A stretch of DNA of 35,355 bases. It comes from Deinococcales bacterium (GTDB taxonomy: Bacteria; Deinococcota; Deinococci; Deinococcales; JAAFIG01). A program made the translations under genes and the position numbers. The notes under the pieces are model-generated. The model ran no database searches and had not been told where the DNA came from. It saw only the letters and a program-made list of their open reading frames with translations. The stretch lies in NCBI GenBank assembly GCA_043778225.1, contig JAYWGM010000027.1, positions 1 through 35,355 on the forward strand, given 5' to 3'. How positions within the stretch are numbered: the first letter of the stretch is position 1; every line of letters begins with the position of its first letter. This document shows positions 9,956 to 30,778 of the stretch, one piece after another.

Positions 9956-9985
9956 ACCCCCTCGAGACTCGAGGGGGTCTTTATT
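9956..9985. terminator. Intrinsic terminator between convergent genes
   Basis: ACCCCCTCGAG-A-CTCGAGGGGGT inverted repeat followed by CTTTATTT. Confidence 0.8.
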
Positions 9986-11067
9986 TATACAAACCGACCA
10001 TTTTCTTGAAAAACCACGCCATCCATAGTAATTCTGCCACTGGCTCGCAAGTCCATAATTAAATCCCAGTGCAGCGCACTTTTATTTAAGCCGCCGCATT
10101 CTGGGTAACTTGCACCAATGGCTAAATGGGCTGTACCACCAATTTTCTCGTCAAATAAAATGTTTTTGGTGGCTTGGGTAATGCCAAAATTCGTACCGAT
10201 GCCAATTTCGCCTAAAAAACGTGCGCCTTGGTCTATCTCGAGGGCTGATTGTAAGTAATCGTTGCCCTCTTCGGCGCTGGCTTTAATCACTTTGCCATCT
10301 TTGAACCACAGTTCGACCCCAGAAACCAGAAACCCCGAAAAACTCGAGGGAATTGTAAAGCGCACCACCCCATTGGCACTGTTTTCGATGGGGCTGGTAA
10401 AAATTTCGCCAGACGGCATATTGCGTTTGCCATCCGAGTTTTGCCATGTCCGCCCAGCCACCGACATTGTGATGTCTGTACCGGGGGCTTCTAAACGCAC
10501 TGTTTTGGCATTTTTAACCCGCTCGACTAATTTTTCCTGCATCGCACGAATCTCAATCCAACCTTTCCATGGATCATCGAGGTTCAAAAACATTGCCCCA
10601 ATCACAAAGCGCTCGAATTGCTCGAGGCTCATACCAGCATCTTTGGCGTAGCCTTCGGTTGGAAACAAGGTAATGCACCAGCGTTTGCCGGCTCGAGCCG
10701 CGCTGAGTTGCCCAAGGGCTTTGCGGTGACGCATCAGGTTCTCGGGCTTGATTCGCTCCAAACCGCGCAAATCCGATTCGGCTTCGATTCTTAAAAAAGC
10801 ATCGGCATGGCGCATCTGTTCGATTTCGGCTTTGGGCAGGGTATCCAAATGAATCTCTTTGGCATACTGATGAAAATCCAAAGTTTGCCCCGGATAACCA
10901 AGCCGAAAAAGTGGAAAGGCATCGCAGTACAAAATGGCATTGTGCAGCACCCGTACCAAAGGCTCGGCAAGCGTATTGGTTTGAATCAAGATGGTCTCGC
11001 CCGGCGAAACCTCGAGACAGTAATCGGTGAGGAGTCGCGCCCATCTCGAGAGGAAAATATCTTGCAC
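9985..11067 (-). CDS. Aminopeptidase, M29 (aminopeptidase T/PepS) family
   Basis: NMPSGEIFTSP, GEIGIGTN, LFDEKIGGTAHLAIG, SALHWDLI. Likely GTG start at 11067 with TACAAT 6 nt upstream. Confidence 0.93.
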   Translation of the reverse strand: MQDIFLSRWARLLTDYCLEVSPGETILIQTNTLAEPLVRVLHNAILYCDAFPLFRLGYPGQTLDFHQYAKEIHLDTLPKAEIEQMRHADAFLRIEAESDLRGLERIKPENLMRHRKALGQLSAARAGKRWCITLFPTEGYAKDAGMSLEQFERFVIGAMFLNLDDPWKGWIEIRAMQEKLVERVKNAKTVRLEAPGTDITMSVAGRTWQNSDGKRNMPSGEIFTSPIENSANGVVRFTIPSSFSGFLVSGVELWFKDGKVIKASAEEGNDYLQSALEIDQGARFLGEIGIGTNFGITQATKNILFDEKIGGTAHLAIGASYPECGGLNKSALHWDLIMDLRASGRITMDGVVFQENGRFV

Positions 11068-11094
11068 TTGTGTATTGTAGTACAAATTGCAGCT

Positions 11095-12639
11095 TTAAGC
11101 CTTGTTGTGGCGTTCGTATTGCCAAACAGCATTGGAATCCAGTCGATAAGCACCATGATTTGCTTGTAGACTTGCTTGCCAACCAAGCATCTGACGCAGC
11201 ATTTGTACCAATACCGAAAGCCGCCGCTTGGCTTTTTGTAAATCAAGACCTTGGTATAAGGCTGCACAAATTTGAGTCATCGAACAAAAACCTTGATGCT
11301 CAAGCAAAAACACCAAAAGTTCAGTCATTTTATGGCTGAGCATAATCGGGACATCGTTGACTTGCACCAGCAACGAATCTTGGGTTTCGACCCGCACCAC
11401 CAAATCGGTCTGGTATACAAGTGGCACTGGTTTTTGTGGCAATAACGCCAAGAGTTCTGGAAATCGTAGCGCCTCTTCTCGAGCCGCCAAAGACTCGAGC
11501 GGCAAGCCAACCAGCAGCGCTTTTGCCAAGTCGGGGTTTCCTGCTTGCCGAGCCAATTCGCCTTGCAACAAAGCCACCGACCAACGCACCGACTCTTTTT
11601 GTGGGTTGCTGATTTGGGCTAACGTGTGGCTGACTTCTTGGGGTGAATGGACTGCCAACAAAACTTGAGCTTTGGTCAGCCATAAACTGTCTTGCTCGAG
11701 TTGGTCTTGGTGAAAAGCATCCTCGAGAATTTTAAGGGCTTGGTTGGCGCGACCCGACAACAAATAAACCCGAGCCAAACCTCGGTAGGCATTGGTGCGT
11801 TCAAAACTCCCTTGGGCTTGGGAGAGGGCTTTTTTGTAGGCGGCTTCGGCTCGAGACCACTGACCACGCACCCGCCGCGATAAGGCAATCCCATTCCAAG
11901 CCGATGCCCGATGCGTTGCCGCCGATGGATTGCGTGAAACCCGCTCTAGCTCGAGAAAATACCCTTCAGCTTGGGGTAAAAAGTGGCGCTGGGCATCTAC
12001 CCCAAGGTTGTATAAAATATGAGCCGTGGTCTGCGCTCGGTGCTTGACCAACGGCAGCGCTTCTTGCCAAACGCTTTGGGCTTTGGCAGATAAGCCAGCT
12101 TCCGACAGGCAATAACCATAGTTAATTAGCCCTCGAGCCAAACCGATGTTTTTTAAGAGTGGCAAGCCTTTTTGAAAACTGGCTTGCCATTCTGGCAATT
12201 GTAATTCAAACAACGCCCAACCTAGCCAAGTGTAGGCTCGCCCAAGATTTTCGTTGTGCAGCCGCAACAATAAAGGCTCGAGTCTGGCTTTCATGTCGCT
12301 AAAACGACTGTGCATGGTCAAAAAACCAACATACTCAAGTTCGAGTTCGGCATATTCAGACGGGCTGCACAGGTTTTTGGTTTGCTCGAGAAACCCCAAT
12401 AATTCTGGCTCGAGTTTATTTAAGGACAACAACTGCATATACATTCGCCGGCAAGGATGCAGCTTTAAGCGCTGCTCGAGTGGAATTTTTTGCATCAACT
12501 CGAGCAGCACCGCGTACTGGCTGGCGGTCTGCAAATGCTTCAAAGCCTGTTCCAGCAGATTTGCGGCTTGGATAAAACGCAAATGGTGCAACAGCAGCAA
12601 AAACGACTTCTCGACATCAGCCAAACTGATTTTGAACAC
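11095..12639 (-). CDS. TPR-repeat protein with C-terminal OmpR/SARP-like winged-helix domain (putative transcriptional regulator)
   Basis: TPR-like helices (ARGLINYGYCL, AHILYNLG, AWNGIAL, AYRGLARVY); C-terminal ELLVFLLEH...ICAALY...LSVLVQMLRQMLG...GAYRL. Confidence 0.75.
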   Translation of the reverse strand: MFKISLADVEKSFLLLLHHLRFIQAANLLEQALKHLQTASQYAVLLELMQKIPLEQRLKLHPCRRMYMQLLSLNKLEPELLGFLEQTKNLCSPSEYAELELEYVGFLTMHSRFSDMKARLEPLLLRLHNENLGRAYTWLGWALFELQLPEWQASFQKGLPLLKNIGLARGLINYGYCLSEAGLSAKAQSVWQEALPLVKHRAQTTAHILYNLGVDAQRHFLPQAEGYFLELERVSRNPSAATHRASAWNGIALSRRVRGQWSRAEAAYKKALSQAQGSFERTNAYRGLARVYLLSGRANQALKILEDAFHQDQLEQDSLWLTKAQVLLAVHSPQEVSHTLAQISNPQKESVRWSVALLQGELARQAGNPDLAKALLVGLPLESLAAREEALRFPELLALLPQKPVPLVYQTDLVVRVETQDSLLVQVNDVPIMLSHKMTELLVFLLEHQGFCSMTQICAALYQGLDLQKAKRRLSVLVQMLRQMLGWQASLQANHGAYRLDSNAVWQYERHNKA

Positions 12640-12658
12640 ATCGTCATTGTGTCATAAA

Positions 12659-12826
12659 TCAGCAACCTATGGCACAAGGCTTAGGGTCTTCGACCAACTG
12701 GTACAGATTTGGGGCTGACTTGACTTGGGTCATCTTAACGGCTGCCAAAGCTCCAAAATAGGCTGCGAAACCAGCCACCAATGCAACCACCAAAATTTGC
12801 TTACCAACCTTTATGCTACGATTCAT
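12659..12826 (-). CDS. 55-aa secreted or membrane peptide ending in PKPCAIGC
   Basis: SD GGAGG, ATG at 12826; basic N-terminus and hydrophobic stretch (ILVVALVAGFAAYFGALAAV); stops 19 nt upstream of the TPR regulator start. Confidence 0.75.
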   Translation of the reverse strand: MNRSIKVGKQILVVALVAGFAAYFGALAAVKMTQVKSAPNLYQLVEDPKPCAIGC

Positions 12827-13018
12827 AACAACCTCCAGATACGGGGGAATGGAGGGGTGCAAAGGCGACCAAGCAATTTGCACCCCCAAGACGAAAGCCG
12901 GAAAAGCGCCACACGTGCAGTCTGGCTCGAGTCAAAATAAGTGCTTAAACGCCCCGATTCAATCCGCACAACAAGCTGCTCGAGCGCAAGCCCGCCTAAA
13001 TTTGCTAAACTACAGAGT

Positions 13019-13195
13019 ATGACCAAGTTCATCATCGAAGAGCATTCAGACGGTTTTGTGGCTTACCCACTTGGTATTCATGGGGTTGTGGTCGGTCAAG
13101 GCGATTCTCGAGAAGAAGCCCTTGAAGATGCACGGTCAGCTTTAGAATTTCATATTGAAACCTTTGCTTGTGAAATGAATTCGAGACGACTATAA
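13019..13195 (+). CDS. HicB-family antitoxin-like protein (short, no HicA partner seen)
   Basis: IIEEHSDGFVAYPLG..GVVVGQGDSREEALEDARSALEFHIETF; TAAACT 7 nt before ATG 13019. Confidence 0.8.
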   Translation: MTKFIIEEHSDGFVAYPLGIHGVVVGQGDSREEALEDARSALEFHIETFACEMNSRRL

Positions 13196-13204
13196 TTTTT
13201 TGTT

Positions 13205-13438
13205 ATGAACACTCCCCTCGAGTTACCCAAAGAACTTGAAGTTGCGCTGATGAGCATAGCCACTCGAGAAAACCGAACCGTCAACGAACTGGTACAAGAT
13301 GCTTTGCAACATTTTGCCCAAGAACACACCAAGCCAACCCCAAGTTGGTTAGGCATTGCCGAAGGTGAACCCGATTTATCACAGCGCGTAGATGAACTTT
13401 TATTCAAAGATAACGGTTGTCTAGGTTTTGTAGGGTAG
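13205..13438 (+). CDS. CopG/ribbon-helix-helix (VapB-like) antitoxin-like protein
   Basis: LELPKELEVALMSIATRENRTVNELVQDAL RHH pattern; C-terminal LGIAEGEPDLSQRVDELL. Confidence 0.7.
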   Translation: MNTPLELPKELEVALMSIATRENRTVNELVQDALQHFAQEHTKPTPSWLGIAEGEPDLSQRVDELLFKDNGCLGFVG

Positions 13439-17157: not shown

Positions 17158-20100
17158 ATGATTCGACTCGAGGTGCTTGGAAAACCAATGGTCAAAATCC
17201 AAAACCGCGAGGCGAAGCTCTACGCCAAAGCTGTGGCACTGCTTGCCTACCTCGCACTTGAGGGGCGCACCAGCCGCCGTAAAATAGCCGAAATGCTTTG
17301 GGCTGGCGCTCCCGATGCGCTCAATAACTTATCGGTCACTCGAGGGCATATTCTGGGCGAACTGGGCGAAACGGCGCTTGTCTCCGACCTCGAGACGATT
17401 GCACTAGGAGCAAATGTTTGGTGCGATGCGCTGGAGTGGCAAAAAGACCCGAGCCGACAAAGTTGGGACTTATACCGAGGCGAATTTTTACAAGATTTAC
17501 GACTGCGCGAATGGAAACGCGGGCTGGGCGAAGAATTTGAGGAATGGGTCGAACAAAAACGAACAGATTTTGCCGTGGAACGTTCTGGATTGGCACTCGC
17601 TTTAGCCAAAGAGGCTTTGCGCTCCGAGCAGTATCTTGATGCACAAGCATGGCTCGAGTTTTCCGCCAATGATTTTAATGAACCACACGAAGAAGCGGTG
17701 CGCTGGCTGATTTGTTTATATGGGTTTCAAAACCAAATCGATAAAACCAGAGCAATCTACTCAAAACTCGATACAAACCTAAAAGAGACTTTGGGGGTTT
17801 GTCCAACCGCCCAGACCCAAGCTGCTTTTTTATTGGCTCGAGATGGGCAATCGGCTGAGTGCTTACATTTGCTCAAGCAAGAATTTGTTTCTAGCCCCAG
17901 ACAAAACCAAAGCGAACCGCTTCTTCTACATACTCCATTTATCGGACGAAATGATGTACTTCGTGATTTATTTGACTTTTTGCTTACTAAACCGAACACT
18001 TTGGCTCGAGCCGTGGGCATTATGGGTGAACCGGGTGCAGGGAAAAGTCGGCTGGCGCTCGAGTTGGCAAGGCGGCTAGAAAGTCATTTGGGTGCAACCT
18101 CATATTTTGTTAAAGCAACTCCCGAGTCTCCTGTTGCCGAACCACTTGCCGAGTTGTGCCGAGCCTTGTTACAACACCGCCCTCAGGCTATAAATCAGCT
18201 TTCCTTGGCTTCACAAAAAGCCATACAGCACCTTTTGCCCGACTTGTATCCAAAAATGAATCACGAGGAAGACCTAAACCACAGCCATCAGCTAAAAAAC
18301 GCACTGCAATCTTTGTTTGCCACACAACAAAACACCATTATCGTTTTTGATGATTTGCAGTGGGCGGATGCAATCACGGTACAACACCTTTTACATATGC
18401 TCGAGGCAGGTTTATACCTTATTTTTACCCAACGCAACACTGAACCAAGCCGTGCTGATACACAAAGCCTTTTGAGATCGGGTGCAAAACAACACAACCT
18501 CGAGCCACTGCTGGTGAGCGACCTCAGCCAATTGCTCAAGCAGTATCATAATCAACACTGGAATGCCAGCAGTTTACGCAAAGCCAGTGGTGGTAATCCG
18601 CTCTATGCGCTCGAGTTACTCCGCAGCCAAGAACCCATGCCACGCCAAGTGCTGCATCTCATTCGAGAACGAGTCAAACGCTTAGGGGCGATTGAACAAC
18701 AGGTACTCGAGGGTTTTGCAGTCTTGGACAGCAGTGCCGATTTGTATTTACTTGCCAAGGTCACCGGACGCAGCCAAGACGAACTGATAGAAGCCACCGA
18801 ACGACTCGAGCATGAGGGGTTACTTGGGCATAATCAGCATTATTTGCACTTAAACCATGACCTGACCAAAGAAGCAGTTTTACAAGACCTTGGGATTGCT
18901 CGCCGTGCGATGCTCCATTTGCGGGCGGCTCGAGCCTTAAAAATGCCGAGCAGTGCAGCACAGCATTATTGGGATGCCAGAAATGCTTGGACACCAAAAG
19001 ACAGGCGATTCGCGCACGCTGCATTTAGTAATCTAGCCAATCGGTATGGAATGCACGGCGAAATAGAAAATGCAGTTGCTTGCTTTTATCAAATTATTGA
19101 AACATCCAGTAGTGATGCTCAAAGGCTCGAATCAAAATTACGCTGTGCAGAATGGCTAATTCGGTATGACAATTACCAGCACGCTTCGGTTATGCTCGAG
19201 CAGACAGTCAATTTACTGCAAGATACCAACGATTCATATTTGCACGCCTATGCCGATGTTGTGAAAGGCAGAATCCTTACAAATAATAGACAACCAATGA
19301 TTGCAAAAATACACCTTGAAGCAGCCCTCTATCGGCTAGAGGGGACTGTTTCACAGCGAAATAAGATACTTCAAGGCGAAGCACAATTGTGGCTTGGCTG
19401 GAATTACCGTGCAATTGGTGAATTAAGTAAAGCAAAAAACTGTTTTGATATAGCTCGAGAAATTTTTCAAGCACTTAATCAACAACGCAATCTTGCCGAG
19501 GCATTGTCGAGTTTGGCAACCATTGCCCATCAAACACAAGACCTTTCAACCGCAGAGCAGTATTGGCGGGCTGCTTTGGTCATTCATGAACAACTCCGAA
19601 ATATATCTGGAATTATTTTAACCATGCACAACCTTGCCATTGCTTTATGGACTCGAGGCATACTGACACAAGCCTTTGATTTTGCAAATAAGGCTGCAAG
19701 TATGGCAGAAGACATTCAGTCTTTTCGGAGTCTTGCCCTAGCCCAAGAATGTAAAGGGTCAATTTTATGCTTACAACATCAGTACGACCAAGCACTTAAA
19801 GAATACCAAAATGCAACCAACGCATGGCAACGAGCCTCTGCATCTATACCGATTGAACTGATATGCAACACCGCCGAGGTATATTTCTACCTGTTTGACT
19901 ATGTAAAAGCACTTCAGGAAATGAATCAATTTTGGGCTGAAGTAGAATTAAAAAGTATTCAAGATTATTCAATCTTGGTCTTTGCACATTTACTATCCTT
20001 TGATATTCATTTGGAACAAAATAACCATCTAGAATGTAAAAAACACACGATAAAAGCCCAAGCACTGATAGAACAAAATGCACTTATGGTCTTTGAGCAT

Positions 20101-20331
20101 GGTTTGAAAGTCCGACAAACCATGCTCAAAAACGATGTCCAAGAAATACATGATCTTATAAAAAAGTACAAGGATCATCTCGAGTACACTGCTCCACTTG
20201 CTCTAACTTTGGCAACAAAACATCAACAATTTGATATGGCAATAGGATTACTTGAACACTGTACCCATCCGTACTGGCAACAGCGAATTGAAAATGTAAT
20301 ACGGGAATTAAGCCCTAATAACCCAACATAG
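17158..20331 (+). CDS. AfsR/SARP-like regulator: N-terminal wHTH + BTAD, central STAND/AAA ATPase, C-terminal TPRs
   Basis: IRLEVLGKP..KAVALLAYLALEG..SRRKIAEMLW; LYRGEFL..FEEWV (BTAD); Walker A GEPGAGKS; Walker B IVFDDLQWAD; SGGNPLY; TPR repeats. Confidence 0.9.
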   Translation: MIRLEVLGKPMVKIQNREAKLYAKAVALLAYLALEGRTSRRKIAEMLWAGAPDALNNLSVTRGHILGELGETALVSDLETIALGANVWCDALEWQKDPSRQSWDLYRGEFLQDLRLREWKRGLGEEFEEWVEQKRTDFAVERSGLALALAKEALRSEQYLDAQAWLEFSANDFNEPHEEAVRWLICLYGFQNQIDKTRAIYSKLDTNLKETLGVCPTAQTQAAFLLARDGQSAECLHLLKQEFVSSPRQNQSEPLLLHTPFIGRNDVLRDLFDFLLTKPNTLARAVGIMGEPGAGKSRLALELARRLESHLGATSYFVKATPESPVAEPLAELCRALLQHRPQAINQLSLASQKAIQHLLPDLYPKMNHEEDLNHSHQLKNALQSLFATQQNTIIVFDDLQWADAITVQHLLHMLEAGLYLIFTQRNTEPSRADTQSLLRSGAKQHNLEPLLVSDLSQLLKQYHNQHWNASSLRKASGGNPLYALELLRSQEPMPRQVLHLIRERVKRLGAIEQQVLEGFAVLDSSADLYLLAKVTGRSQDELIEATERLEHEGLLGHNQHYLHLNHDLTKEAVLQDLGIARRAMLHLRAARALKMPSSAAQHYWDARNAWTPKDRRFAHAAFSNLANRYGMHGEIENAVACFYQIIETSSSDAQRLESKLRCAEWLIRYDNYQHASVMLEQTVNLLQDTNDSYLHAYADVVKGRILTNNRQPMIAKIHLEAALYRLEGTVSQRNKILQGEAQLWLGWNYRAIGELSKAKNCFDIAREIFQALNQQRNLAEALSSLATIAHQTQDLSTAEQYWRAALVIHEQLRNISGIILTMHNLAIALWTRGILTQAFDFANKAASMAEDIQSFRSLALAQECKGSILCLQHQYDQALKEYQNATNAWQRASASIPIELICNTAEVYFYLFDYVKALQEMNQFWAEVELKSIQDYSILVFAHLLSFDIHLEQNNHLECKKHTIKAQALIEQNALMVFEHGLKVRQTMLKNDVQEIHDLIKKYKDHLEYTAPLALTLATKHQQFDMAIGLLEHCTHPYWQQRIENVIRELSPNNPT

Positions 20332-20350
20332 GAGTCTTCAAGGAGGATGT

Positions 20351-21940
20351 ATGAAAAAGCAATTTGGCATGGTCATTTTTATTCTAATGTGTGGTTTTCT
20401 CTTGTTGGTTAATGCTCAATCAACGAAAGAAGGTGTTATTTTTGCTCCAAATATTGTGGCTGGTGGCGATATATTTACAGCACAACTTATATCTAAAAGA
20501 CCAATAGAAAAGTTGATTTTTAACCCAGAAATGCAGCCGCCAGCAAAGTTTTCGTTAATTCCAAAGCCAGAAAATAGGGACGGAGTGTATACCTTTACAT
20601 TACCTAAAGATGTGCTTGGTGGAAATCCAATTGTGGATGCAATGATTAAAGAAGGAAGTACCTCCAAAACTGTAAACCTTCGACCCATACAGCAAAACGC
20701 AGAGCAGTATATTGGTACGATTACAATACTTGGTCAAGATGTTGTAAAGAATCAAACAACACTGGTTTGGCATTCAGCAAATATAACAGGGACAAATGCA
20801 AAGCCAATTCTGGAAGACTCCAAAGCAATTGGTTCTCTTACAGATGCAACTCCTATTTGCAAAGGGAAACTGGAAATTAGAGAAAAAACACCTTACAGTA
20901 GTACAATAGTTTCAGAATTAAACACGTGGGCAGTGAAGAATAGATATGCAGCTGTGGCGGATGTGTATAAAGCTGTGATTGCAGACCCAGTACCGAATTA
21001 TGGCGCACCAGCCTATTCTTTTGACGATGCTTTAGCAGTGGCTGATTTTAGACAAAGTGTCAAATTAGGAAATTCGATAAGCATTCTAAACACTCCCAAA
21101 ATAGCTATTGTGGATACAGGGGTATCTAATTTTTCGGATACGCAACGAGTTAAAGACCCTTATAATTTTATTGCAAATACCACCAATGCATCTGACGATT
21201 TTATGAAAGATTTTGATTTCAAAGGCTCAAGCGGTAACTCATCGAAACTCGAAATGAAGGGTCATGGAAGTATAGTTGCAGAAATTGCTGCTGGTCAAAA
21301 TGGAATCTCTCCTAATTCCACAATTATTCCAGTCAAGGTTTGTGACAAAAATGGCAGTTGCCGATTGGATCATGTCATCAGAGGCGTTTGTTACGCTATT
21401 GCAAAGGTTGGTGCGGGTGGGATAGTCAATATGAGTTTTGGTGGGGATACAGACTCAAATATACTCACGGCAATTATCAATGAGGCAGTGGCGAAGGGGG
21501 TAAAATTTGTTGCTTCAGCAGGCAACAGAGAAGCCTACTACAAAGCAAAAGGTATCTTGGGTGTGCTAATGCAATTTCCTGCTGCAACACAAGTCCGCAA
21601 TCCAAATGAGATTGTTTTGAACAATTTACGATTATCACCAAGCGTTTTTGGCGTTGGTGCAGTCGGAAATTATAATAACGTCTGGATTCCGACTGAATTT
21701 AGTCAGCGTGGTGCGTATGTGGATATTGTTGCACCGGGTGCAGGTATTGTGTTCAACAATAGTAGATACGCCGGAACATCTTTTGCAGCACCTTTTATTG
21801 CAGGGGCGTTGGCATTGGCAGCAGGAAAACAGATGGAGGGTGACCTTAAAGACATTTGTGACCCAAGTTTCAAGATAGATCGCAATAAGCACTCTCCCAT
21901 AGTGGGTTGCGGTATGCTCAATTTATCTTCCATCAAATAA
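20351..21940 (+). CDS. Secreted S8 (subtilisin-like) serine peptidase
   Basis: Signal peptide; catalytic triad IVDTG, GHGSIVA, GTSFAAP; ASAGN oxyanion motif; SD AGGAGG. Confidence 0.92.
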   Translation: MKKQFGMVIFILMCGFLLLVNAQSTKEGVIFAPNIVAGGDIFTAQLISKRPIEKLIFNPEMQPPAKFSLIPKPENRDGVYTFTLPKDVLGGNPIVDAMIKEGSTSKTVNLRPIQQNAEQYIGTITILGQDVVKNQTTLVWHSANITGTNAKPILEDSKAIGSLTDATPICKGKLEIREKTPYSSTIVSELNTWAVKNRYAAVADVYKAVIADPVPNYGAPAYSFDDALAVADFRQSVKLGNSISILNTPKIAIVDTGVSNFSDTQRVKDPYNFIANTTNASDDFMKDFDFKGSSGNSSKLEMKGHGSIVAEIAAGQNGISPNSTIIPVKVCDKNGSCRLDHVIRGVCYAIAKVGAGGIVNMSFGGDTDSNILTAIINEAVAKGVKFVASAGNREAYYKAKGILGVLMQFPAATQVRNPNEIVLNNLRLSPSVFGVGAVGNYNNVWIPTEFSQRGAYVDIVAPGAGIVFNNSRYAGTSFAAPFIAGALALAAGKQMEGDLKDICDPSFKIDRNKHSPIVGCGMLNLSSIK

Positions 21941-29327: not shown

Positions 29328-30323
29328 TTAAGTCGAATTTCGTGTATAGCGACATTGAGGATACATTGTACATCCAATAAAACTCCCATATGAACCTTTC
29401 ACTCGTCTGAGTTCAGCACCACAAGTTGGGCATTTTCCTAAAGTATTGTTTTTTAGTGATTTGATAGACACAGGCTCAGCAATATGAAATCCTGCTGGAA
29501 TAATTGTGTCTTCATTTAAATATGTTCTAATCATTCCTACCAACTCATCTAATTCTATAATTTTTAAGGGAAATCCATGAATCCATTCTTTTGCCTGACG
29601 CGAAACTTTACCAGTAGTAACAAGTAAGCCCTGACTAGCCCGCTTTTTTGTTACATTTCCCAATAAATCTCTAATTGCAGGCTCTCCAACAGTTCCTTTA
29701 TATCTTTTACATTGCAAAAGTATTAGACTTCCATTTTTTCTAAGGTAAGCATCAATACCACCGTCATTACTATACTTGGTTATTTCGACACTATACCCCT
29801 GCGCTCTATATAAATTACCTATAAGTTCTTCAAATTCTCGAGGGTCTATGGTTTTTAGAAACTCTGGTAATCGAATGCGCTTTACATAGCTAGTCCAGGC
29901 TTTTTGACGTTCCAATAATTTTTTTGCCGCTAGTTCTTTGGCTTTACTTTCCCTTAAATATCTTTCGTTTTCACTCTTCATTCTTTCTTGTTCGCGTTGA
30001 ATCCTTTGCATTTCATTTTTTTCATAAATTTCCGTTTGACACTTTTGACATTTATCTGGAGATAGTTTTGCATAAAAAACCCCATGTTTGCACGGTTCTC
30101 GATTTATTTTTTCTAAATTTCTATTTGCGAAATAAGTATCAATAGGATCACTTATTTTTTCAAGTAAGAAAGCAATTATTTTATAGAAAATCCAGCAAAA
30201 TAATGAGACTAAACATAAAATTAGTACACTAATTTGCATTTTAGTTGAAATAAAAGCAAGTAAACCAAAAAATAAGGAAATTGAAAAGAAAGCTAAAAAA
30301 ATTAGAGAAATCATGAAAAACAT
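29328..30323 (-). CDS. Membrane-anchored Mrr-like (type IV) restriction endonuclease with C-terminal topoisomerase-type Zn ribbon
   Basis: DPREFEELIG, SNDGGIDAYL, LLQCKRY; CPTCG...FIGCTMYPQCRY; N-terminal TM helices; very AT-rich. Confidence 0.85.
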   Translation of the reverse strand: MFFMISLIFLAFFSISLFFGLLAFISTKMQISVLILCLVSLFCWIFYKIIAFLLEKISDPIDTYFANRNLEKINREPCKHGVFYAKLSPDKCQKCQTEIYEKNEMQRIQREQERMKSENERYLRESKAKELAAKKLLERQKAWTSYVKRIRLPEFLKTIDPREFEELIGNLYRAQGYSVEITKYSNDGGIDAYLRKNGSLILLQCKRYKGTVGEPAIRDLLGNVTKKRASQGLLVTTGKVSRQAKEWIHGFPLKIIELDELVGMIRTYLNEDTIIPAGFHIAEPVSIKSLKNNTLGKCPTCGAELRRVKGSYGSFIGCTMYPQCRYTRNST

Positions 30324-30445: not shown

Positions 30446-30778
30446 TCAAGCTGCCCGAGCCACCAGCAATTGGCTTTGAGGCATTGGTAAACCAAACATC
30501 AGTGCGGTTTCTGGAATTCCCGCCCGAATCAGTGCATCGGTTAAACCAAAATCTGTATTGTCTATCTCGAGCCAAATCTGGTCGTTTCTTATCGTGACAT
30601 ACGCCAGACAATCATGAAAAGGCTTTCCGTCTAACCAACCCAAAACCATGACTTGAAACCGATTGTTTTGCGTGTCGAATAAAGTCTCGAGTCGTAAATC
30701 CCCCAATGGTTGGGCTTTAGCTAGTTCGCTTAGGACACCAATGATCATTTCTTGAGTTTGATTTAGAACTGCTCCCAT
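30446..30778 (-). CDS. xisI: XisI-family protein
   Basis: LFDTQNNRFQVMVLGW...IRNDQIWLEIDNTDFGLTDALIRAGIP; overlaps the xisH 3' end. Confidence 0.85.
   Translation of the reverse strand: MGAVLNQTQEMIIGVLSELAKAQPLGDLRLETLFDTQNNRFQVMVLGWLDGKPFHDCLAYVTIRNDQIWLEIDNTDFGLTDALIRAGIPETALMFGLPMPQSQLLVARAA

Follow-up and report, generated by a model that had tools for sequence, protein, structure and literature searches.

The window analysed here, a stretch of 35,355 nt from a Deinococcales bacterium (contig JAYWGM010000027.1 of assembly GCA_043778225.1), carries on its minus strand a small open reading frame (ORF) of 55 amino acids followed by the gene of a regulator that is built of tetratricopeptide repeats (TPR) and a winged helix-turn-helix (wHTH) domain. 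We found that these two genes form a real and conserved cassette which was not annotated before, and a signalling role for it is well motivated but unproven. A previous sequence-only reading had described the 55-aa ORF with a Shine-Dalgarno (SD) sequence, a signal-like N-terminus and a CAIGC tail, lying 19 nt before the gene of the TPR protein, and it had taken the pair for a peptide signal and its receptor. The locus is as that reading described it, on the minus strand, and the GTG start of the regulator gene lies 19 nt past the stop of the 55-aa ORF. For brevity, the two products are called the peptide and the receptor below.

It had been proposed that the homologous regulators should be checked for adjoining small secreted ORFs. 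Our counts agreed with this expectation, as a small ORF of this kind was found at 58 of 67 homologous loci from three families of Deinococcales, compared with 10 of the 4832 other frames of these loci. The loci were collected from the window's family, from a sample of the order and from 40 regions fetched around order-level matches; duplicates, loci without the N-terminus of the receptor and loci with less than 300 nt of upstream DNA were excluded before counting, and 67 remained. A frame passed this loose test if it had a hydrophobic stretch, an acidic residue close to its end and two or more Gly or Cys among the last seven residues, lay on the same strand and had its stop no more than 500 nt upstream of the receptor. 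The typical passing frame is a signal-peptide ORF with a tail of [D/E]-D-P-K and a Gly- or Cys-rich end. When a stricter tail motif was used, 41 of 68 loci were positive versus 1 of 2860 control frames, and this sole control match is a true peptide gene that lies 489 nt upstream. The window's assembly, a metagenome-assembled genome (4.03 Mb, 107 contigs), holds two further receptor paralogues, each with a small same-strand ORF just upstream, and the three paralogous pairs have distinct tails, namely CAIGC, TCSAC (...VEGSQTCSAC) and GGGSGG (...AGDDPGGGSGG). Among the 76045 short frames of this genome 180 pass the loose test, including all three next to receptor genes. The pairing of peptide and receptor is beyond chance, and a chance ORF was rejected on the locus-versus-control counts and the genome-wide frame count.

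A profile of the receptor family matched 109 of 301 sampled Deinococcales genomes at E <= 1e-20. By subset of the order sample (labelled f1 to f5), the matches were 17/18 in f1, 53/95 in f3, 37/68 in f5, 1/96 in f2 and 0/23 in f4, and all 19 genomes of the window's own family (19/19) had receptor matches, often several each. An exhaustive profile search yielded 959 representatives at E <= 1e-30, of which at least 150 were full length; a word-indexed homology search with a 66-row profile returned the same 29 proteins again together with unrelated TPR proteins. The family members are named in the databases as 'TPR repeat protein', 'helix-turn-helix domain-containing protein' (Meiothermus) or 'tetratricopeptide repeat protein' (Deinococcus), one JGI record reads 'DNA-binding SARP family transcriptional activator', and PF17874 (TPR_MalT) is precomputed on several of them. 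Some of the small ORFs of the family are present in public databases as 'hypothetical protein' only (Deinococcus and Calidithermus species), without a Pfam family.

The 55-aa ORF of the window reads MNRSIKVGKQ-ILVVALVAGFAAYFGALAAV-KMTQVKSAPNLYQLVEDPKPCAIGC, and its C-terminal end is LVEDPKPCAIGC. The N-terminus has three K/R residues and then a hydrophobic stretch of about 20 residues. The product opens with a positive N-region (net charge +3 ahead of the core) and continues with the hydrophobic core, a site at which signal peptidase might cut (..GALA/AVK..) and a variable linker; it closes with the conserved tail VEDPKPCAIGC. Cleavage at the possible sites would release products of 26–36 residues. 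Of 59 family peptides, 56 have an N-region with a net positive charge and 58 have a small-residue (-3,-1) site past the hydrophobic core, as scored by a home-made rule and not a trained predictor, the (-3,-1) site rule being loose. An SD-like motif was found at 42 of 59 peptide starts versus 376 of 2950 random positions. Judged by these features, the small ORFs look like translated secretory pre-peptides of the Sec type.

The signal-like part and the linker are free to vary in sequence and length, and conservation is concentrated in the last 10–12 residues, which fits pro-peptides with a C-terminal active part. The commonest tail form is (hydrophobic)-A-x-D-D-P-K-x-G-x-G-G, the consensus being also written A-x-D-x-P-K-x-G-x-G-G; most family members have such Gly-rich tails rather than Cys tails. 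The tail of the Meiothermus-like group is ..GDGPKCCAGG. In the window's clade, which comprises nine receptors of one family, the tail is ..VDDPKPC-x2-4-C, the consensus being also written ..DDPKPCxxC; the two Cys are most often spaced as C-x2-C, the window and locus L012 have C-x3-C, and L023 has C-x4-C (L numbers denote loci and C numbers denote contigs). The disulfide that the sequence-only reading suggested for C-x3-C would bridge Cys residues whose spacing varies in the clade.

Some further small ORFs were observed. Two tandem peptide genes precede one receptor at L004 (2276-2410 and 2491-2658, minus strand), with the tails ..DDPKPCPACRR and ..DDNPKPCSVC. The Gly-tailed group that is sister to the window's clade includes two loci with a gene for an S8 subtilisin-like protease (L014:3581-4612 and L025:3670-4617, minus strand) directly upstream of the peptide gene, and this protease is a possible candidate for the processing enzyme. 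The window's genome also has a small ORF at contig C15:78167-78313 (+) with a signal-peptide-like start and the C-terminus ..PPEVCSKC; no receptor homologue adjoins it, and it runs divergently to a 667-aa gene with which it has a slight overlap. On contig C21 of this genome (7942-8630, minus strand) two ORFs have the Gly-rich tails ..LADPTGYNGGP and ..GDDIGDPTTLGGGP. They adjoin a 944-aa regulator at C21:5143-7977 (+), the N-terminus of which gives the impression of a SARP-type winged helix.

The TPR protein had been claimed to carry a C-terminal wHTH, an order reversed compared with the RRNPP receptors, and the structural model bears this out. The AlphaFold2 model, built with 66 homologues, has a predicted local distance difference test value (pLDDT) of 95.4 and a predicted template modelling score (pTM) of 0.91, and shows helical repeats at residues 6-397 and a beta-sheet/three-helix/beta-hairpin domain at residues 414-509. 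Pfam detected TPR_12 at residues 244-308 of the 514-aa protein (E 2.8e-8), and Trans_reg_C was found below its curated cut-off of 26.2 bits, with 19.8 bits (E 8e-4) in the last 121 aa and 16.1 bits in the whole protein. When domain 414-509 was modelled alone (pLDDT 93.2), it showed the OmpR/PhoB order of an N-terminal beta-sheet, three helices and a C-terminal beta-hairpin wing. Every top match of this lone domain in the PDB was an OmpR/PhoB/SARP effector domain, with TM 0.55-0.69 and a root-mean-square deviation (rmsd) of 2.2-2.7 Å. The best was PhoB-DNA 1gxp (E 1.9e-3, rmsd 2.3 Å over 85 columns), followed by YycF, VicR, AfsR, GlnR and EmbR, and the Foldseek E-values of these winged-helix matches are weak (2e-3 or worse). 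On the model and the fold matches, the C-terminal domain is assigned as an OmpR/PhoB-type winged helix. The window receptor ends about 35 residues before most of its relatives (window 11095-11112) and is without the F-L-x-G-x-Y-x-x-W-V-x-E stretch that is conserved after their winged helix; we presume that this stretch of the relatives resembles the start of the BTAD domain.

A signal peptide or membrane segment was not apparent in the sequence or the model of the receptor, and therefore the receptor is presumed to be cytoplasmic. The alignment of its TPR domain by VIA-align placed apo RapI first (Z 23.8, rmsd 4.3 Å over 324 residues). RapH (Z 20.1), NprR (Z 19.6) and AimR (Z 18.3) were also matched, a phage Rap with peptide and PlcR-PapR were listed as well (down to 16.3), and domain III of MalT had Z 21.0 with an rmsd of 6.5 Å over 321 residues. 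A PDB profile search with the receptor gave generic TPR proteins only. As modelled, the TPR fold is compatible with an RRNPP-like or a MalT-like sensor, and homology to either is not established.

The placement of the peptide tail in the TPR groove, another check that the sequence-only reading had put forward, was obtained in the complex prediction. The input consisted of the whole receptor and the peptide residues 26-55, each with its own alignment. The median score was 0.75 (runs 0.78, 0.72 and 0.75) versus 0.02 for the best control; in the calibration of this score, 116 of 157 solved complexes attained the mark, as did 2 of 215 mismatched pairs. At least 55% of the contacts are common to the runs. 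The confident interface consists of peptide residues 45-55, which are the conserved tail, on the concave face of the TPR repeats, and the predicted contacts of the receptor are residues 37, 72-73, 105-109, 141, 169-180, 187, 204-218, 246-253, 283 and 350. The prediction supports the suggestion that the tail sits in the TPR groove of the adjacent regulator. Positions of this groove differ with the class of the tail. At position 173, 8 of 10 Cys-pair receptors have N and almost every other receptor has D/E; at position 105, most receptors of the Gly class have W, which none of the Cys-pair class has. Mapped on the receptor tree, the tail classes need 4 label changes versus 15.1 expected, and none of 200 shuffles (0/200) was as low.

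Outside the window's clade, the receptor is usually followed by an HTH-WYL-WCX regulator, which was found at 39 of 69 loci by Pfam in the 1.5-kb flanks. We also inspected 40 wider loci across three families, none of them of the Cys clade; a WYL-WCX gene was present in 37 of 40 and cas genes within about 6 kb in 29 of 40, with L084, L110 and L113 scored from the 1.5-kb flank scan. The downstream cas sets are of type I-E (Cas3, Cse1, Cse2, Cas7, Cas5) or type I-C (Cas3, Cas5d, Csd1, Cas7), two have Cas6 and DevR/Csa2, and the receptor of L015 is directly followed by Cmr2. The window's genome has such a locus with a complete type I-E operon on contig C80, where the peptide gene, the receptor, WYL-WCX, cas3, cse1, cse2, cas7, cas5, cas6e, cas1, cas2 and an array of 29-nt repeats follow each other on one strand; only one other Cas3_HD match occurs in this genome, at a contig edge. 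The window's Cys-tailed clade had WYL or cas neighbours in 0 of 10 loci, and its neighbours vary.

Two variants of this arrangement were observed. In six Meiothermus-like type I-C loci (L085, L086, L088, L089, L090 and L091), WYL, WCX and Cas3 HD/helicase are encoded in one frame of 1078-1100 aa, for example at L089:3576-6815 on the minus strand, and the reading frames suggest that WYL and Cas3 are naturally fused in the gene directly following the receptor. The third paralogue of the window's genome (contig C56) has a 452-aa second TPR protein in place of the WYL gene (L081:10013-11371), and an XisH/XisI pair is situated 7 kb beyond.

An inverted repeat with perfect 10-bp arms, GGGGTGCAAA-N13-TTTGCACCCC, precedes the peptide gene of the window and has an RNA fold energy of -19.5 kcal/mol. 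Inverted repeats that differ in their arms and share part of the spacer were found at the same position in L004, L006, L008, L011, L015, L021, L023, L052, L053, L055 and L066. Across the loci they have arms of 8-10 bp and a spacer of 13-19 nt and are located 25-30 nt before the peptide start, and the arms differ yet are complementary; compensatory changes occur at 4 of the 8 pairs of the consensus stem. The spacer motif is reverse-complemented in the Deinococcus-like loci, which argues for a double-stranded operator over an RNA hairpin. No Rfam family matched around the inverted repeat. In a regulon search of the window's genome the exact inverted repeat was unique, the four sites with no more than two mismatches look like chance, and the loop-motif patterns are far too common in this genome for finding a regulon.

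The cassette can be compared with several known systems. It shares with RRNPP(A) (Rap-Phr, NprR-NprX, PlcR-PapR, PrgX, Rgg-SHP and AimR-AimP), the quorum-sensing systems of Bacillota with their phages and plasmids, the adjacent gene pair, in which a small pro-peptide with a C-terminal active part, here putatively exported, is coupled to a cytoplasmic receptor of TPR type that is usually a transcription factor. It also shares the TPR-type domain with the peptide placed in its groove, here by prediction. RRNPP receptors have an N-terminal HTH or three-helix effector domain ahead of the TPR domain, whereas the only DNA-binding domain of the window receptor is the C-terminal winged helix of OmpR/PhoB type, and its N-terminus is part of the repeats. 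A sequence-level relationship of the receptor to RRNPP was not detected. The cassette further differs from RRNPP in belonging to Deinococcota and in having a WYL regulator and CRISPR-Cas as its usual genomic output. The relevant parts of PMC10075063 and PMC12700828 treat RRNPP(A) as belonging to Bacillota and the mobile elements of these bacteria, and their account of it does not mention Deinococcus.

The SARP/AfsR/EmbR proteins likewise combine an OmpR/PhoB-type winged helix with TPR-like repeats in one protein, and the fold matches of the C-terminal domain include AfsR and EmbR. The window family differs from them in having the repeats first and the wHTH last and in having no NTPase domain, and BTAD (PF03704) gave no match in the window receptor among Pfam hits up to E 10. 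We know of no partner peptide gene for SARPs. The MalT/LAL regulators are similar in that the DNA-binding domain likewise stands at the C-terminus, behind a sensor domain of helical repeats. Their DNA-binding domain is of the LuxR type, whereas that of the window receptor is OmpR-type; moreover, the window receptor is without the STAND ATPase module, and its proposed ligand is a gene-encoded peptide. Neither an ATPase nor a LuxR-type domain was found in the window receptor by Pfam or in the model. The HTH-WYL-WCX regulators from defence islands (BrxR/CapW/PafBC-like) and the WYL proteins beside CRISPR-Cas are comparable in that, at most wider family loci, a WYL-WCX gene follows the receptor and cas genes lie beyond it; the window locus is without a WYL gene. 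That defence and DNA-damage genes have WYL regulators is established (abstracts of PMC12041258 and PMC10693628). Searches of open-access article text found no description of a peptide/TPR-wHTH module or of such a pair feeding WYL/CRISPR loci, and the module is not described in the pertinent parts of PMC10075063, PMC12700828 and bioRxiv 10.1101/270033.

With the receptor cytoplasmic and the peptide exported, the simplest circuit is RRNPP-like. We lean slightly towards a two-gene peptide/receptor switch that works like RRNPP with a different architecture, in which the pre-peptide is exported and its tail is re-imported and bound in the TPR groove. In such a switch the 55-aa product would be a Sec-type pre-peptide that is carried across the membrane by its N-terminal signal sequence, and the active part would be the conserved C-terminal tail of about 11 residues (VEDPKPCAIGC in the window). 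The exported peptide would accumulate outside the cell, possibly after trimming. The window's genome encodes 14 peptide-binding proteins of Opp/Dpp type (SBP_bac_5 genes), which makes peptide import possible, and the tail might be re-imported by the oligopeptide permease of one of these 14 systems. It would then occupy the concave TPR groove of the adjacent cytoplasmic regulator and alter the action of the winged helix on DNA at the cassette's own promoter and the downstream genes, with the inverted repeat before the peptide gene as a candidate autoregulatory site. The output in most family members would be the next genes, that is, the HTH-WYL-WCX regulator and the CRISPR-Cas operon. The window copy belongs to a Cys-tailed clade that would have left the WYL/CRISPR context, and it lies in an apparent operon with an M29 aminopeptidase gene. 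We infer the export, processing, re-import, DNA target, direction of regulation and regulon. The earlier claim of a signalling cassette thus holds in part: the conserved pairing, the domain order and the predicted placement of the tail in the groove speak for it, and it had missed the Gly-rich majority of the tails and the WYL/CRISPR-Cas context of the relatives.

Several observations weigh against such a switch. The small-ORF test was failed by 9 of the 67 loci. Among these, the tails of L042, L057, L063 and L079 are recognisable but deviant, the motif is present in a disturbed frame in L047 and L060, L064 has a transposase inserted upstream, and the upstream DNA of L007 and L067 was, by eye, without any small peptide ORF. 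A permease or processing protease conserved beside the cassette was not found in the flanks of 69 loci. In the complex the peptide's own pLDDT is low (about 50), and the pass of this prediction may partly reflect likeness to solved TPR-peptide complexes. The leading RRNPP fold match in VIA-align is tied by generic TPR proteins such as O-GlcNAc transferase (OGT, Z 23.6), and Foldseek with the whole receptor model retrieved generic TPR proteins only. Shared descent can explain much of the co-variation of tail and receptor, as the Cys-pair class consists of a single clade and one paralogue on a long branch. Many tails are Gly-rich (e.g. GGGSGG) and hold little information for a specific ligand, and no part of the peptide is better conserved than the tail, which is where pherotype systems usually diversify. 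The inverted repeat is present in a subset of the loci only, and the reversal of its loop motif in the Deinococcus-like loci belongs to the same side of the account.

The tail might meet the receptor within the producing cell, with no cell-to-cell signalling, and report the state of the envelope or of export to the WYL/CRISPR-Cas genes. An un-exported pre-peptide could build up when Sec export or the membrane is disturbed, e.g. by phage infection or envelope stress, or the small protein could stay anchored in the membrane and tether or release the regulator. The predicted binding is silent on the place of the encounter, the cassette has no conserved gene for a permease or protease, and low-information Gly-rich tails matter less if neighbours need not be told apart; an output that usually consists of defence genes, with a WYL regulator in front of them, would also fit an alarm for stress or infection. 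We nevertheless hold such internal sensing to be rather unlikely, as the positive N-regions (56/59) and the plausible signal-peptidase sites (58/59) predict that the tail is outside and cleaved free, and several paralogous pairs with distinct tails per genome are more typical of separate signalling channels.

It might also be that the small secreted protein is a regulated product, such as a secreted or surface factor, and that the TPR-wHTH protein is its transcription factor with another ligand, the two not binding each other. Co-orientation and short gaps are also expected for a regulator and its target gene, and TPR domains bind many kinds of partners. On the other hand, the complex prediction passes its controls with an interface that is exactly the conserved tail, conservation lies in a tail of about 11 residues and not in a folded domain, and the groove residues differ with the tail class, and we consider this explanation quite improbable. 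Paired Cys or a terminal Gly-Gly at the C-terminus recalls several classes of modified peptides, and the conservation of these residues at the extreme C-terminus of the small ORF could mean that it is the precursor of a ribosomally made and enzymatically modified peptide (C-terminal Cys or Gly-Gly chemistry), with the TPR protein as a regulator or recognition partner and the modifying enzymes encoded elsewhere. A recurrent modification enzyme was absent from the flanks of the 69 loci and from the 40 wider loci, and the N-terminal part resembles a Sec signal and not an enzyme-recognised leader; we give such a precursor very little credence.

Returning to the RRNPP-like switch, a broader proposal may be offered tentatively, with clearly less confidence than the switch itself. 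Deinococcota (Deinococcus, Meiothermus and uncultured relatives) may hold an independently evolved counterpart of RRNPP, the main job of which would be to set the expression of type I-E, type I-C and other CRISPR-Cas systems through the WYL regulator according to a secreted peptide cue, and the Cys-tailed paralogues would be spin-off channels with new targets. If this is true, the circuit design of a peptide signal and a TPR receptor evolved more than once, in a second phylum and from different parts, and the cassette would be the first candidate peptide signalling system for Deinococcus and Meiothermus, both of which are cultured and genetically tractable. The WYL/CRISPR-Cas link of the relatives raises the interest of the cassette. 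Its position ahead of a WYL gene and complete CRISPR-Cas operons makes testable the long-standing question of which cues switch on CRISPR immunity and whether cells share these cues. If the tail acts only inside the producing cell, it would be a new kind of sensor of the export or envelope state that is wired to defence genes.

The features of the cassette are collected in Table 1. The M29 aminopeptidase gene begins 9 nt past the receptor stop on the same strand and is probably co-transcribed with the receptor. As a conserved partner of the cassette it was rejected, since the other Cys-clade loci have different neighbours.

Table 1. Positions of the cassette genes and their parts in the window.
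Feature	Position	Strand	Remarks
Pre-peptide gene	12659..12826	(-)	55 aa; ORF and translation
Stop codon of the 55-aa ORF	12659-12661	(-)	
Shine-Dalgarno GGAGG	12832..12836	(-)	5 nt 5' of the peptide ATG; read directly from the sequence
Inverted repeat, candidate operator or 5'-leader hairpin	12854..12886	(-)	ends ~27 nt before the peptide ATG
Receptor/regulator gene	11095..12639	(-)	514 aa, GTG start
TPR-like helical repeat domain, predicted peptide-binding groove	11449..12624	(-)	residues 6-397; AlphaFold2 model
OmpR/PhoB-type winged-helix DNA-binding domain (predicted)	11113..11400	(-)	residues 414-509; model and fold matches
M29 aminopeptidase gene	9985..11085	(-)	Pfam Peptidase_M29, E 3.8e-72

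Cas and WYL genes were absent from the 35-kb window by Pfam. Two small ORFs of 84 and 77 aa (window 12941-13438, plus strand) run in divergent orientation to the peptide gene, and neither matched Pfam. At 17158-21940 (+) the window encodes a 1057-aa AAA_16 ATPase plus TPR protein, which is STAND-like, and then an S8 subtilase. In related genomes, the C-terminal third of the receptor profile weakly matched frames of about 1040 aa. The window also encodes an Mrr-type restriction endonuclease (29328-30323) and XisI (30446-30778).

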